A stretch of 64,000 bases of DNA from Escherichia coli (GCF_024502345.1 NZ_JALDNN010000001.1), one strand, 5' to 3'. Counted from the first letter of the stretch, positions 1-6,849 are shown. Made by a program: numbers and translations. Notes: generated by a model not told the origin, from the sequence alone.

Positions 1-168
1 ACGCGTCATTACTCAGTGGAAAATTGCGCAGAGGAAAGCTGTCGAGACTGCAATAGTTGCATTCGCCCCAGCTTTTCCCTTTCGCGTAGCGCCCTTATTC
101 GCCTGAACGCGGCGAATGCTCGTTTTGTCTATCAACCGTTTACACGCGATCAGCGGGCGAGGGGGTAA
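1..168 (+). CDS. possible 3' end of an upstream ORF cut by the window edge (frame 1 open from nt 1, stop TAA at 166-168)
   Basis: 55 stop-free codons from the window edge, ending 2 nt before the ATG at 171; too short to assign a family. Confidence 0.25.
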   Translation, partial: TRHYSVENCAEESCRDCNSCIRPSFSLSRSALIRLNAANARFVYQPFTRDQRARG

Positions 169-170
169 CT

Positions 171-938
171 ATGCAACCCAGCCCTGCCATGCAGGCATTA
201 ATTGAGCAGATTTATCACACCTTTCGTCGTTATCGGGTGCCGCAGAAATTTGTGGTTTGTTGTGAATATTGCCTGAGTCAGCAGGAACAAAAGGCATTAC
301 GGAGTACATCGTTACGAGCGATCCCGTATTCCTTAATCAATGCCTGGAATAGTAGCCCAGGGCCTGATCCGCAAAATAGCGATGAGGTCCGCTATTTTCT
401 GCCGCGTTTACTGGAATTTGTTGCACAGGGGCATTTTGACAATATTCACGTAGTTTTTTCTCTGCGCCGTATCAACCTTGCCAACAAAGAAAACTGGCGT
501 GCGGATGAACGGGCAATTTTACAGCGATTTGCCTGCCAGTATATGACTGATTGGGTATCCGGCGATGAAGCTGTCGAATTACAGTATATGCTGGAAATGT
601 TTTTCCGTGCCGATATCGCTCTTGCGCCATTGCTGGATGCCATTAATTCAGTTCCCGGCTTTTGGTCGACCGTTTCTCTTGCCTGTTTATTGAACAGATA
701 TTGTGAGGATTATATCAGAGATAACCAGGACGATATCGATAACGCCATTACCACCCAAATCAATGCCTGGGCTAGAAATAATCATCCTTTACTGAAAGAA
801 AGAGCGCGGCAAGCGATTGAGAACCCGCTAAAACAGCCCGAACCAATGACAGAATATCATGTCTGGGAAGATGACTGGATAATTGATGAGTGTTTATGCG
901 CGATGTATGACGCATCATCCGAATCACCAGGAAAATAA
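171..938 (+). CDS. hypothetical soluble protein, 255 aa, no family recognised
   Basis: ORF track; ATG preceded by GAGGGGG; AT-rich relative to glpD; cysteine clusters near both termini (VVCCEYC and ECLCAMY); not recognisable as any K-12 protein of this locus. Confidence 0.55.
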   Translation: MQPSPAMQALIEQIYHTFRRYRVPQKFVVCCEYCLSQQEQKALRSTSLRAIPYSLINAWNSSPGPDPQNSDEVRYFLPRLLEFVAQGHFDNIHVVFSLRRINLANKENWRADERAILQRFACQYMTDWVSGDEAVELQYMLEMFFRADIALAPLLDAINSVPGFWSTVSLACLLNRYCEDYIRDNQDDIDNAITTQINAWARNNHPLLKERARQAIENPLKQPEPMTEYHVWEDDWIIDECLCAMYDASSESPGK

Positions 939-940
939 AA

Positions 941-1546
941 ATGATTAAATTCCGGCTTTATATTCCCCCTGTAATTCTCGGTTTTGTTATCGTGCCATTA
1001 TTGGTATGGCCGACGGTTATTGTCTTAGCCGTACTTATATTCACGTTAACTTTTCTGGCAGAAATAATATTCTCCTTTCCGCTCCTGGTTGTACGTATTT
1101 CTCTTCAGGAATTACAACTTGAGTTAATGGTTGAATATGCACTTTTTTTCAGTGTAATGGCTGGCATCGGTTGGCAATTCTCCCGCAGAACGCCTCCTGA
1201 ATTAAAAAACAGACTGCATTGCTGGCTGGTCTTTTCGCCGGTCTATTTCTGGTTAATTCTCTCGAATTTCATTCTTTATATTTCTCCAGAGAAATCAGCG
1301 TTGCTGGAAAATATCCGAAATTTCTTTCTGACGTTTGTCTGGCCTCCCCTGAATTTTTCCCCTTTTTGGCCGCAGCCTTGGACTGATTTTGTCGGCCCGA
1401 TTAGTGCACAGCTTGGTTTTGCATTGGGATATTATTGCCATTGGTGCAGAAAAAATAGAAACCAGAGGAAGAAGTGGGGCGATTGGGTAACGTGCTTAAG
1501 TTTGGCGATTTTAGCTCAGGGGCCGTTATTCAATTATTTACAATGA
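941..1546 (+). CDS. hypothetical polytopic inner-membrane protein, 201 aa
   Basis: ATG 2 nt after the stop of the previous ORF, AGGAAA upstream; 4-5 hydrophobic helices; basic C-terminal tail (CRKNRNQRKKWG); 35-38% GC in two sampled 60-nt stretches. Confidence 0.5.
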   Translation: MIKFRLYIPPVILGFVIVPLLVWPTVIVLAVLIFTLTFLAEIIFSFPLLVVRISLQELQLELMVEYALFFSVMAGIGWQFSRRTPPELKNRLHCWLVFSPVYFWLILSNFILYISPEKSALLENIRNFFLTFVWPPLNFSPFWPQPWTDFVGPISAQLGFALGYYCHWCRKNRNQRKKWGDWVTCLSLAILAQGPLFNYLQ

Positions 1547-1567: not shown

Positions 1568-1590
1568 GCCCGGTTGCACTTCAACCGGGC
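1568..1590. terminator. stem-loop (GCCCGGTT-loop-AACCGGGC) in the convergent gap just downstream of the glpD stop
   Basis: inverted repeat read directly; lies between the ends of convergent genes. Confidence 0.4.
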
Positions 1591-1597
1591 ATCATCC

Positions 1598-3103
1598 TTA
1601 CGACGCCAGCGACAACTTCTGCTGCGTATATTCCACCAGCCACTGACTCACACGAGATTGTTGATCCGCATTCAGCCACATGCCTTGTTTTGTGCGACGC
1701 CAAAGGGCATCGTCGGTGCGGCGGACCCATTCGTGATCCACCAGGTATTTCAGTTCCGCTTCGTAGAACTCATGACCGAAATCCTCCCCGAGGTCGCTTA
1801 TCGCCCCCGCATTGCCGAGCAGCAGCTCGCTGTTGCTGCCGTAAGTGCGTGCGTAATGACGCGCCAGCGATTCAGTCAGGAATGGATAGCGACGGCGCAG
1901 ACGAGCTGCGTAATCGTCGCGGTCGCCTTCAATGGCACCACCCGGCAGCACGCTCTCTTTCGTCCATGCCGGGCCAATGCCCTGATAATACGGCGTCAGT
2001 TTTTCCAGCGCATGTTCCGCCAGTTTGCGGTAGGTGGTCAACTTACCGCCGAATACCGACAGCAGCGGTGCTTTGCCGTTTTCATCATGGATATCAAGGG
2101 TGTAATCACGGGTAATAGCCTGCGGCGAGTCGGACTCATCATCACACAGCGGACGCACACCGGAGTAGGTCCAGACGATATCGTCACGGCTTAACTGCTT
2201 TTTAAAGTGCGTGTTATACACTTTCAGCAGGTAATTGATTTCACTCTCTTCAATCTTCACCGCTTTCGGATCGCCTTTGTATTCCACATCGGTGGTGCCG
2301 ATGATGGAAAACTCGTCCATCCACGGGATCACGAACACAATGCGTTTATCTTCGTTTTGCAGAATGTAGGCCTGCTTTTGGGTATGCACGCGCGGCACCA
2401 CAATATGGCTGCCTTTGATCAGGCGAATGCCATAAGGCGAAGGCAGATGCATCCCGTCGTCGAAGAACTGTTTCACCCACGGGCCGGTGGCGTTAACCAA
2501 GCCGCGCGCTTGCCAGCTATATTTTTTGCCGGTATCGATATCTTCCGCTTCCACAATCCACAGGCCGTTTTCGCGGCGAGCAGAGGTGGCGCGAGTCCGA
2601 GTAAGCACTTCGCCGCCTTTACGCACCACCATCTGGGCGTTGGCGAGTACCAGACGGGCGTCGTCTACCCAACAGTCAGAATATTCGAATCCGCGCTTAA
2701 TTTCCGGTTTTAACACTGAATTTGCGCCAAAACGCAAACCGGTTGATCCCGGCAGGCTGGTGCGTTTACCCAGATGATCGTACATAAACAGACCAATGCG
2801 AATCATCCACGCCGGGCGCAGATGCGGACGATGTGGCAGGCGAAAACGCATCGGGAAGGCGATATGCGGAGCCATTTTCAGCAGCACTTCACGTTCAGCC
2901 AGCGCCTCGCTGACCAGGCGGAATTCATAGTGCTCAAGGTAGCGCAGGCCACCGTGAATGAGTTTTGAACTGGCGGAAGAGGTCGCGCAAGCGAGATCCT
3001 GCGCCTCCAGCATCAGCACGGATAAACCGCGTCCAGCGGCGTCTGCCGCGATACCAGCACCATTGATGCCGCCACCTATCACAATCAGATCTTTGGTTTC
3101 CAT
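1598..3103 (-). CDS. glpD: aerobic glycerol-3-phosphate dehydrogenase (FAD-dependent)
   Basis: 501-aa product from METKDLIVIGGGINGAGIA (FAD-binding GxGxxG); ORF track extends 5 codons upstream; matches K-12 GlpD from memory. Confidence 0.95.
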   Translation of the reverse strand: METKDLIVIGGGINGAGIAADAAGRGLSVLMLEAQDLACATSSASSKLIHGGLRYLEHYEFRLVSEALAEREVLLKMAPHIAFPMRFRLPHRPHLRPAWMIRIGLFMYDHLGKRTSLPGSTGLRFGANSVLKPEIKRGFEYSDCWVDDARLVLANAQMVVRKGGEVLTRTRATSARRENGLWIVEAEDIDTGKKYSWQARGLVNATGPWVKQFFDDGMHLPSPYGIRLIKGSHIVVPRVHTQKQAYILQNEDKRIVFVIPWMDEFSIIGTTDVEYKGDPKAVKIEESEINYLLKVYNTHFKKQLSRDDIVWTYSGVRPLCDDESDSPQAITRDYTLDIHDENGKAPLLSVFGGKLTTYRKLAEHALEKLTPYYQGIGPAWTKESVLPGGAIEGDRDDYAARLRRRYPFLTESLARHYARTYGSNSELLLGNAGAISDLGEDFGHEFYEAELKYLVDHEWVRRTDDALWRRTKQGMWLNADQQSRVSQWLVEYTQQKLSLAS

Positions 3104-3651: not shown

Positions 3652-4494
<843 letters not shown>

Positions 4495-4510: not shown

Positions 4511-5269
4511 ATGAAACAAACACAACGTCACAACGGTATTATCGAACTGGTTAAACAGCAGGGTTATGTCAGTACTGAAGAGCTGGTAGAGCATTTCTCC
4601 GTCAGCCCGCAGACTATTCGCCGCGACCTCAATGAGCTGGCGGAGCAAAACCTGATCCTGCGTCACCATGGCGGTGCGGCGCTGCCTTCCAGTTCGGTTA
4701 ACACGCCGTGGCACGATCGTAAAGCCACCCAGACCGAAGAAAAAGAGCGTATTGCCCGCAAAGTGGCGGAGCAAATCCCCAACGGCTCGACGCTGTTTAT
4801 CGATATCGGCACCACCCCGGAAGCGGTGGCGCACGCGCTGCTTAATCACAGCAATTTGCGCATTGTCACCAACAATCTCAACGTCGCTAACACGTTGATG
4901 GTAAAAGAAGATTTTCGCATTATTCTCGCCGGTGGCGAATTACGTAGCCGCGATGGTGGGATCATAGGTGAAGCGACGCTCGATTTTATCTCCCAGTTCC
5001 GCCTTGATTTCGGCATTCTGGGGATAAGCGGCATCGATAGCGACGGCTCGCTGCTGGAGTTCGATTACCACGAAGTTCGCACCAAACGCGCCATTATTGA
5101 GAACTCGCGCCACGTTATGCTGGTTGTCGATCACTCGAAATTTGGCCGTAACGCGATGGTCAATATGGGCAGCATCAGCATGGTAGATGCCGTCTACACC
5201 GACGCCCAGCCGCCAGTAAGCGTGATGCAGGTGCTGACGGACCACCATATTCAACTGGAGCTGTGCTGA
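4511..5269 (+). CDS. glpR: DeoR-family repressor of the glycerol-3-phosphate regulon
   Basis: 252 aa; N-terminal HTH, DeoR-type C-terminal domain; gene order glpEGR. Confidence 0.93.
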   Translation: MKQTQRHNGIIELVKQQGYVSTEELVEHFSVSPQTIRRDLNELAEQNLILRHHGGAALPSSSVNTPWHDRKATQTEEKERIARKVAEQIPNGSTLFIDIGTTPEAVAHALLNHSNLRIVTNNLNVANTLMVKEDFRIILAGGELRSRDGGIIGEATLDFISQFRLDFGILGISGIDSDGSLLEFDYHEVRTKRAIIENSRHVMLVVDHSKFGRNAMVNMGSISMVDAVYTDAQPPVSVMQVLTDHHIQLELC

Positions 5270-6849
5270 TCCTGCAATGCTTCCCAGGTCAGACCAAAAC
5301 GCGCCAGGTATTTGCGTAGCCGATCCGCGTCATTGACGCTGGCTTTGCCCTGGCGCGAAACATCAAAAAGCTGTCGTCCGGCAGCAGAAAGCGACTTTGC
5401 CTGGCGGCAGATAGCGATAACGTGTTCCAGTTGCATACGGTCGAAGAGATCGATGTTTTCTGCCTCTGCGCCCAGCAACGCCGTAAGCGCGGAGGGGCGG
5501 CTCTCCTGCCAGTTAAAGCGCAGACGGTTTATCTCATCTTCAACCACGTCCAGAGTAATGCGTCCGCTAGAGGCAAAGGTTGCCATTCGCGTGACGCTGG
5601 CAGAAAGCTCGCGAAAGTTACCGCGCCATGTTGCCTGGGGAGATGTCGCAAAGGCCAGCCAGGCGCGCCGCGCTTCGGTGTTAAAACGCACGCTGTCGCC
5701 GGTGAGTGAAGCGTGGCGCTCCACTTCATAATCCAGGTTAGGTTCAATATCTTCCTGGCGCTGGCGTAGCCCCGGCAGGGTGAAGGTCCAGAGATTGATC
5801 CGCGCGTACAGGTCTTCGCGAAATTTTCCTTCGGCAACCAGCTGGCGCAAATCACGCACCGTTCCGGCGATAAGCTGAAAATCACTGCTCACCTGGCGAT
5901 CGCTGCCAAACGGATAAAAGGTTTTTTCTTCAATGGCTTTAAGCAGCATTGCCTGTTCGTCTGCGCCCAGTTCGCCAATCTCATCAAGAAACAACATTCC
6001 ACCGTTGGCGCTACGTAATAATCCTTCACGGGATTCCCGCGCCCCGGTAAACGCGCCTTTTACATGACCAAACAGCGTCGACATGGCGGTATCGCCGCGC
6101 AGGGTTGCGCAGTTCACTTCCACAAACGCGCCGCTAAACTGATGCCGCGCCTGTTTTAATTCAAATATACGTCGCGCCAGAAATGACTTGCCCGCACCGG
6201 TTGGGCCGTTTAGCAGGATCGGTGCGCGGGATTTAATCGCCACTTTTTCAATCTGCTCAATCATGCGGTTGAAGTGCGGGTTACGCGTGGCAATGCCGGA
6301 CTTAAGAAAATCAAGCGTTTGCTGGCGTTCCTCGGCAAAGCGGCTGGCGATGGCGTTATAACGGCTTAAATCGAGATCGATAATCGTCACTTCACCTGCG
6401 CCGCGCGGCTGTTCTTTTTTGCGCGGAGGTGAAGATTGTATCAACCGGGCGGGCAGGTAACGCGCTTCCGCCAGCAGAAACCAGCAAATCTGCGCGACGT
6501 GGGTGCCGGTGGTGATGTGAATTAAATAGTCTTCTTTTTCTGGCTGAAACTCGTAACCACGGGCGAAATCATGCAGGCAGGCGTAAACCTCTTCGAAATC
6601 CCACGGGTTATGCAGTTCAATCTCAACGCTCACCACTTCTGTTTCTGGCGAAACGCTGGCGATATCGCGTTTAAGCGTTTCAAATAGCGAGCGCGAGCGG
6701 GCGTCATGCAATAATTCCAGTCGATCGATGACCAACGATTCTTGCTGGCATAAACAGAGTGTCGGACGCCATTTCGACCAGCGCTGACTGCCGCGCCCGG
6801 CATAATCCAGCACCGTTCCGACAAAGCCAAAAGCCACTGTTTTACGCAT
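5251..6849 (-). CDS. rtcR: sigma-54-dependent transcriptional activator of rtcBA
   Basis: 532 aa; Walker A GPTGAGKS and GAFTGA signature of bacterial enhancer-binding proteins; 3' end overlaps glpR by 19 nt (convergent). Confidence 0.93.

Follow-up and report, generated by a model that had tools for sequence, protein, structure and literature searches.

The question addressed here is what is encoded by the last gene of a strain-dependent island of the Escherichia coli chromosome, a gene for a 201-amino-acid (aa) protein, and with which of its neighbors that protein works. The gene lies near the start of a 64,000-nt stretch of E. coli chromosome (GCF_024502345.1, NZ_JALDNN010000001.1; analyzed as a whole and hereafter called the window), whose first 1600 bases match 3336 complete E. 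coli chromosomes; its neighbors are glpD, glpE, glpG, glpR and rtcR. At the 99.6% identical locus of strain OkiPb01717 (L001; sampled loci are cited by L numbers) it closes a run of four genes that lie in one direction between glgP and glpD and encode, in order, a 502-505-aa fusion of a transmembrane domain to a PstS-like domain (the fusion), a 236-aa YbbD-like protein, a 255-aa protein and the 201-aa protein, with intergenic gaps of 15, 2 and 2 nt. The glgP-glpD locus is O-island 133 (OI-133) in O157:H7. The region between glpD and glgP is listed in the literature as variable, expression of the island is reported to be low, and deletion of OI-133 in EHEC TUV93-0 reduced type III secretion in a screen (PMC3378721; PMC10877973); our literature search found no study of the 201-aa gene itself. 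We tentatively read the 201-aa protein as the membrane subunit of a PstS-like binding-protein module, at a probability of roughly 0.45.

The gene occupies positions 941 to 1546 of the plus strand as an ATG-start ORF in the ORF listing of the window, and the three peptides quoted in the initial annotation were all found in its translation (Table 1). RefSeq carries the ORF at L001 as a CDS for a hypothetical protein (WP_000589361.1), the sampled genomes likewise have it as an intact, annotated CDS, and most of the 4146 E. coli genomes with the gene have an intact copy. The sequence places the ATG 2 nt past the upstream stop (TAA, 936-938), as the initial annotation had it, and the same spacing recurs in L001, L004-L009 and L002/L008; in L021 the two genes overlap in the ATGA manner, and in L010 they overlap by 13 nt. 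Tight coupling to the upstream ORF, as a 2-nt spacer or an overlap, is thus kept whichever gene precedes, and start codon, Shine-Dalgarno sequence and coupling are conserved across copies of the gene. A full-length frame is retained in E. coli, E. albertii, E. marmotae, E. whittamii and other Escherichia species. Pairwise Nei-Gojobori comparison of nine loci gave a mean dN of 0.103, a mean dS of 0.455 and a dN/dS of ~0.23, with dS reaching 1.0, a divergence comparable to that between E. coli and Salmonella; in the same strains dN/dS was 0.034 for glpD and 0.028 for glpG. A sliding window located the strongest constraint at aa 80-114 and 140-174 (dN/dS 0.08-0.09, and 0.08 over the latter) and the weakest at aa 40-74 (0.56-0.69), and a search for diversifying selection by the same means found dN/dS above 1 in no window. 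Low dN/dS across alleles indicates that the frame is constrained as a protein: the ORF is a real gene under purifying selection and not a chance reading frame. The RefSeq CDS, the intact copies and the dN/dS together speak against the possibility, allowed for in the initial annotation, that the frame is not translated.

Base composition sets the gene apart from its surroundings, with a GC content of 41.6% against about 54-55% in the flanks and a GC3 of 0.44 against 0.58-0.64 in flanking genes; the locus in which it sits is variable, low in GC and strain-dependent. At the 3' end of the island the GC-rich hairpin listed in Table 1 is a clear glpD terminator, with its T-run on the minus strand, and is also the sole hairpin available for ending the island operon. 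At the other end a strong glgP terminator hairpin with a T-run (L001 3826-3852) is followed by a perfect TATAAT (L001 3902-3907) ~20 nt upstream of the start region of the fusion gene, so the operon probably has its own promoter. No Pho box was found upstream of the operon, and Rfam had no match in the locus or anywhere in the window. Among nine strains mean dS was 0.137 (maximum 0.237) for glpD (1598-3103), which adjoins the island, and 0.083 (maximum 0.159) for glpG (3664-4494), two genes off; the higher value for glpD fits recombination or old alleles spilling over from the island.

The residue composition of the 201-aa protein (Leu 16%, Phe 10%, Ile, Val and Pro 8% each, Trp 5%) is accompanied by a Kyte-Doolittle maximum of 2.8, and family-averaged minima on the Hessa scale are clear at aa 11-44, 60-78 and 96-114 and weaker at aa 119-137 and 182-200. 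This profile upholds the initial call of a small polytopic membrane protein, for which four to five hydrophobic segments had been claimed. The basic cluster CRKNRNQRKKWG is likewise present, but its description as a C-terminal tail does not hold, 21 residues following it that include the weakly hydrophobic last helix. The first hydrophobic stretch carries a G-x-x-x-x-P-L-L motif and a membrane-embedded acidic residue, E41, whose acidic character is kept in the membrane domain of the fusion (E42; D in two sequences). The first basic loop has a PE.K motif in common with the fusion (SAPEKRE), and the most conserved block holds a GPISAQLGFALGYY motif whose counterpart in the fusion is IPVGAHISFSLGYG. 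The C-terminal helix occurs in two allelic forms, ending in …LAILAQGPLFNYLQ or …FVTLGMMAWALR.

Table 1. Features of the window in and around the 201-aa gene, with residue numbers of the 201-aa protein where these apply.
Feature	Residues	Position	Strand	Remarks
'YbbD family' gene (236 aa), 3' end		1-168	+	cut by the window start; stop 2 nt before the 255-aa gene
255-aa protein gene		171-938	+	cytoplasmic all-alpha (HEAT-like); translationally coupled to the 201-aa gene
AGGA Shine-Dalgarno sequence		929-932	+	within 3' end of the upstream gene; 8 nt 5' of the ATG
N-terminal hydrophobic stretch (TM1, possibly a helical hairpin)	8-44	962-1072	+	hydropathy, alignment
Quoted peptide VILGFVIVPLLVWPTVIVLAVLIFTLTFL	11-39
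Second hydrophobic helix	60-78	1118-1174	+	Hessa minimum; within the least constrained aa 40-74
Basic loop RRTPPELKNR	81-91	1181-1213	+	predicted cytoplasmic
Quoted peptide HCWLVFSPVYFWLILSNFILYI	93-114
Third hydrophobic helix	96-114	1226-1282	+	strongly constrained, dN/dS 0.09
Most conserved block	122-168	1304-1444	+	aromatic/proline-rich segment W134, P136, F139, W147
Basic cluster CRKNRNQRKKWG (quoted peptide)	169-180	1445-1480	+	predicted cytoplasmic loop
Weakly hydrophobic C-terminal helix	182-200	1484-1540	+
GC-rich hairpin		1568-1590	.	between the convergent 201-aa gene and glpD; L001 7568-7590

Orientation in the membrane can be approached through the fusion, in which the equivalent basic loop comes before the last transmembrane helix, the one leading into the periplasmic binding domain. 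Since that domain must be periplasmic, this helix must run from inside to outside and the basic loop preceding it must be cytoplasmic. Transferred to the 201-aa protein, the arrangement would give about five helices, with the N-terminus in and the C-terminus out, and would leave both basic loops (aa 81-91 and 169-180) on the cytoplasmic side; 12 of the 15 K/R residues fall inside under a five-helix N-in model. The AlphaFold2 model of the protein is unreliable (pLDDT 48.6, pTM 0.32) and too poor for fold comparison.

Relatives were sought in several collections. Searches of Pfam, NCBIfam, PADLOC, PHROG and PDB sequences with the 201-aa protein, its family profile and 14 members gave no family match, and against Pfam the 201-aa protein had no match even at E<=10. 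Every match in a word-indexed search of 5.8 billion proteins came from Escherichia (E. coli, E. albertii, E. marmotae and unnamed species), many of the seemingly distant ones being frameshifted copies, and an exhaustive HMM search of 1.84 billion representatives gave 42 matches, all of them Escherichia copies or fragments except one protein, P0103. Scanning 100,044 species genomes (one per species) added matches only in E. whittamii and two unnamed Escherichia species. The sole divergent homologue is therefore P0103, which is 33% identical, lacks the C-terminal helix and is encoded on a short metagenomic contig (L010), where a homologue of the 255-aa protein precedes it with the 13-nt overlap mentioned above and the downstream neighbor is not glpD. 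That 278-aa homologue (L010 121-957) begins '...ELAGTDP', the N-terminal motif of the YbbD-like protein, and looks like the product of a deletion joining the start of a YbbD-like gene to a 255-aa homologue. A known housekeeping membrane protein, which the initial annotation had named as a finding that would count against it, was not among the homologues. By these searches the 201-aa protein is an Escherichia-restricted inner-membrane protein of no known family.

Individual candidates were rejected as well. The PstS/PBP_like_2 domain (PF12849) is absent from the 201-aa protein and present in the fusion and in a second PstS-like protein of the locus (PBP2, below). An ABC importer permease (BPD_transp_1) was rejected on the lack of a Pfam or NCBIfam match and of an ATPase gene in the operon, a CPBP/Abi intramembrane protease (PF02517) on the lack of a Pfam match among 14 family members, and a PADLOC-DB defence or abortive-infection protein on the lack of any family match at E<=0.1 to the five proteins that the locus variants encode. 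For a phage holin, spanin or lysis protein the sole PHROG match was a spurious one to an Rz-like spanin (E 0.21, 23 residues). An immunity protein of a polymorphic toxin system is not indicated by the upstream gene, which encodes the HEAT-like 255-aa protein or a PstS-like protein and not a toxin, nor a Rhs, CDI, T6SS or colicin locus by the flanks, which are instead glgP and glpD or a fimbrial operon.

The other products of the operon are somewhat better defined. In the fusion, a 'PstS family' product, the first ~200 residues form a polytopic membrane domain and residues 249-485 match PBP_like_2 (4.4e-31). With 119 bits the binding domain falls short of the NCBIfam cut-off for PstS (206.6 bits), and its closest solved relatives are short PstS proteins (E ~1e-17); given this score and the search for a Pho box, phosphate is only a putative ligand. 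The similarity of the 236-aa protein to YbbD is weak and spans 43 residues. The 255-aa protein is modeled with confidence as an all-alpha repeat (pLDDT 81, pTM 0.84) and has full-length, uncharacterized structural relatives in many phyla (TM ~0.7, 18-24% identity); two diverged paralogues of it stand in tandem at another locus, an enterobacterial contig (L011 8001-9586), without the membrane gene. Only three to four genes lie between glgP and glpD, and neither an ATPase gene nor a large permease gene was found there.

The membrane domain of the fusion, itself in no family library, proved to be the one relative of the 201-aa protein within its own operon. Direct BLASTP of the 201-aa protein against the fusion gave no significant alignment, and the link is visible only by profile-profile comparison: hhalign aligned the 201-aa family (A4) with the N-terminal domain of the fusion (A3) at a probability of 91.4% and an E value of 9e-7, colinearly from residues 2-171 of the former to 2-168 of the latter. 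The score of this match was 48.6, compared with 12.9 for a reversed control, 13.7±2.6 (maximum 22.2) for 60 column shuffles and 24.0±2.6 (maximum 29.6) for 60 helix-preserving shuffles of intact 20-column blocks; the profiles are shallow and hydrophobic (Neff ~1.7, identity ~18-20%), and the controls argue against a composition artefact. A MAFFT alignment of both families was colinear end to end, with F15, P19, L21, the acidic position 41, G77, E87, W95, P100, W134, W147, P153, F160, L162, G163 and Y164 shared, and the hydrophobic segments agreed in number and order (Hessa minima of the fusion at 12-43, 52-70, 92-110, 123-150 and 181-199). The two proteins (for the fusion, e.g. WP_123000048.1) thus have in common ~170 colinear residues, a hydropathy layout and an operon, together with a G-x-P-[LI]-L motif, an acidic residue in the first stretch, PE.K, W..L.F.P and P-x-x-[AS]-[QH]-[LI]-x-F-x-L-G-Y followed by a basic loop and a last helix; unlike the fusion, the 201-aa protein has no attached binding domain. 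Homology of the 201-aa protein to the ~200-aa N-terminal membrane domain of the fusion, a new result, is on these alignments well supported, shallow as they are.

A second line of evidence comes from the arrangement of the genes. In L002, L008, L018 and L021 (O157:H7) the 201-aa gene directly follows, at 2 nt or with an overlap, a gene for a 330-aa signal-anchored PstS-like protein (PBP2), which is 59% identical to the binding domain of the fusion and has only an N-terminal hydrophobic signal or anchor. This pair, found in about a quarter of the genomes that carry the 201-aa gene, looks like a split version of the fusion; as it stands beside the fusion gene, the same two domains are encoded once fused and once split. 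By 'Rosetta-stone' logic the free-standing domain would then be the membrane subunit of a binding-protein module. It would associate in the membrane with the homologous domain of the fusion and, in the loci that have it, also with the separate PstS-like paralogue encoded just upstream. In the window's own variant the neighbors to which it is translationally coupled are the two cytoplasmic proteins of 236 and 255 aa, which its conserved basic loops, predicted to be cytoplasmic, could dock.

The locus as a whole takes several forms. Variant A, the form in the window, has the order fusion, YbbD-like, 255 and 201; variant B has fusion, 255 and 201; and variant C, in O157:H7, has the fusion, the 330-aa PstS-like paralogue and 201. 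In a B2-type form a chaperone-usher fimbrial operon, probably auf (L006 1-4283, L007 1-4283, L020 1-4835), takes the place of the fusion and the YbbD-like, 255 and 201 genes remain; in L020 an IS3 interrupts the fimbrial gene, and the membrane gene is reduced to a 5' remnant. Forms truncated by IS1, as in K-12, retain only the remnant yzgL, at whose position a truncated piece of the fusion gene lies, and in L003 (3357-4945, NZ_AP027716) an IS1 similarly truncates the fusion and everything up to glpD is gone. Copies of IS1 have hit the locus repeatedly, in some strains between island genes or within the 201-aa gene, which they split. In E. whittamii (L017 5539-6341) the 255-aa gene is frameshifted into two ORFs and the downstream 199-aa membrane gene is intact. 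A metagenome-assembled genome of a related lineage (L014, GCA_913778145.1) has an extra 176-aa secreted protein between glgP and the fusion (5205-5735), and its operon, with fusion, YbbD-like and 255 genes, is missing the membrane gene from the 3' end.

Across 5426 complete E. coli genomes the 201-aa gene was found in 4146 (76%), with at least 80% of its length covered in 3876, and was not found in 1280; it is always chromosomal, never on a plasmid, with a median of one copy in the 4146. Counts of 3011 genomes with the 255-aa gene and of 885 with the second PstS-like gene at full coverage fit the view that one or the other precedes it. Nucleotide identity is bimodal, at least 95% in 2952 genomes and 60-80% in 1112, with 82 in between, and the 60-80% class is the one seen in split-variant loci. 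At the protein level the free-standing form is more polymorphic within E. coli (63-99% identity) than the membrane domain (83-99%) and the binding domain (90-98%) of the fusion, the 255-aa protein (82-96%) and the YbbD-like protein (90-99%). Similar allele types of the 201-aa protein also occur in other Escherichia species; the deep classes reflect either trans-species polymorphism or introgression.

Some of these variants tell against a simple form of the membrane-subunit reading. The B2-type strains, with the fimbrial operon where the fusion would be and with intact, constrained YbbD-like, 255 and 201 genes, imply that the 201-aa protein is not strictly dependent on the fusion. Between L001 and L004 the membrane domains of the fusion are 99% identical and the 201-aa proteins 63%; no co-variation of alleles was seen between the fusion and the 201-aa gene, which argues against an allele-specific interaction. 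L014 retains the fusion and the two cytoplasmic partners and lacks the membrane gene. Taken with the recurrence of the 255/201 pair, the B2 loci, L014 and the shuffled alleles mean that the 201-aa protein may work mainly with the 255-aa protein. In its full form this alternative holds that it is a membrane partner or anchor of the cytoplasmic 255-aa protein (and of the YbbD-like protein), independent of the PstS-like proteins, and that these three genes are a module of their own, beside a PstS-like gene by history only. The pair keeps coupled or overlapping codons in the divergent L010, away from glpD; the B2-type strains keep all three genes; the 255-aa gene is also present in about 3011 of the 4146 genomes with the 201-aa gene; and a confident all-alpha repeat is a typical protein-binding scaffold. 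Yet in ~1100 genomes the membrane gene is present without a 255 or YbbD-like gene, members of the 255 family turn up where the membrane gene is missing (L011, L014), and in E. whittamii the membrane gene has outlived an intact 255 frame. A partnership with the 255-aa protein also leaves the homology to the membrane domain of the fusion unexplained, and we regard it as possible but doubtful.

That homology also weighs on the roles first proposed for the protein, of which that of membrane anchor gains from its likeness to a domain that carries a PstS-like part, and those of immunity protein and abortive-infection effector find no support, neither a family match nor a toxin gene having been found. 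A protein conferring immunity to a membrane-acting toxin, or an effector of abortive infection or another defence, might well be small, polytopic, low in GC and as polymorphic as this one, with alleles down to 63% identity in one species; RefSeq calls a neighboring gene 'YbbD family', and the ybbD of K-12 presumably adjoins a Rhs element. The tandem diverged paralogues of the 255-aa family in L011 and its scattered structural relatives in many phyla make up a pattern also seen in immunity proteins. Against this, PADLOC, PHROG, Pfam and NCBIfam returned nothing for the four proteins beyond the PstS domain and the weak 43-residue YbbD similarity, the locus is free of toxin, nuclease, Rhs/CDI and secretion genes, the 201-aa gene is absent from plasmids and occupies a fixed site between core genes in 76% of genomes, no window of it has dN/dS above 1, and kinship with the anchor domain of a binding protein points elsewhere; we consider a defence role quite improbable. 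We give as little credence to the idea that the gene is an evolutionary leftover, a decaying, functionless fragment of a duplicated fusion gene kept by linkage. Erosion of the locus across many lineages (by IS1 truncation of the K-12 type, IS1 insertion into the gene or frameshifts), the 1280 genomes without the gene and the low reported expression would suit such a relic, but a relic would hardly show, over alleles as far apart as a dS of 1.0, an overall dN/dS of 0.23 that falls to 0.08-0.09 in two blocks, or a full-length frame with conserved start, Shine-Dalgarno sequence and coupling in E. coli, E. albertii, E. marmotae, E. whittamii and other Escherichia.

As the membrane subunit of a binding-protein module, the 201-aa protein would have analogues rather than relatives among characterized systems. 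OpuA and GlnPQ are ABC importers whose substrate-binding domains are fused or tethered to membrane domains, and TRAP and TTT transporters have small membrane subunits; the likeness would lie in a periplasmic binding domain attached to, or encoded beside, a small polytopic membrane component. Unlike these systems, the 201-aa protein matches neither BPD_transp_1 nor a TRAP or TTT subunit in Pfam, the locus has neither an ATPase nor a large permease, and five helices fall short of a known transporter core unless several copies assemble. Pore-forming colicin and CDI immunity proteins are similar in size (~200 aa), in having several helices, in allelic diversity and in tight coupling to an upstream gene; unlike them, the 201-aa gene has no adjacent toxin, family match or positively selected segment and is chromosomal, fixed between core genes.

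The finding concerns a gene that about three quarters of complete E. coli genomes carry, O157:H7 included, and that had never been placed in a family. Should the module be simply a tethered binding protein with a redundant paralogue, it would be an ordinary one. A bolder version, which we think unlikely, is that the 201-aa protein, the fusion and, where present, the second PstS-like protein make up a previously undescribed binding-protein-dependent membrane device, a small anion transporter or sensor without ABC, TRAP or TTT components, confined to Escherichia and maintained as very old allelic lineages, which would explain the drop in type III secretion on deletion of OI-133. For an inner-membrane protein encoded at a fixed site on the chromosome, divergence within the species to as low as 63% protein identity, with synonymous divergence of the order seen between E. 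coli and Salmonella, is unusual and merits a population-genetic explanation. Through the link to the fusion, three or four 'hypothetical' genes become one testable module, with binding and membrane domains both fused and split, and work on the unexplained type III secretion effect of deleting OI-133 has a concrete place to start.
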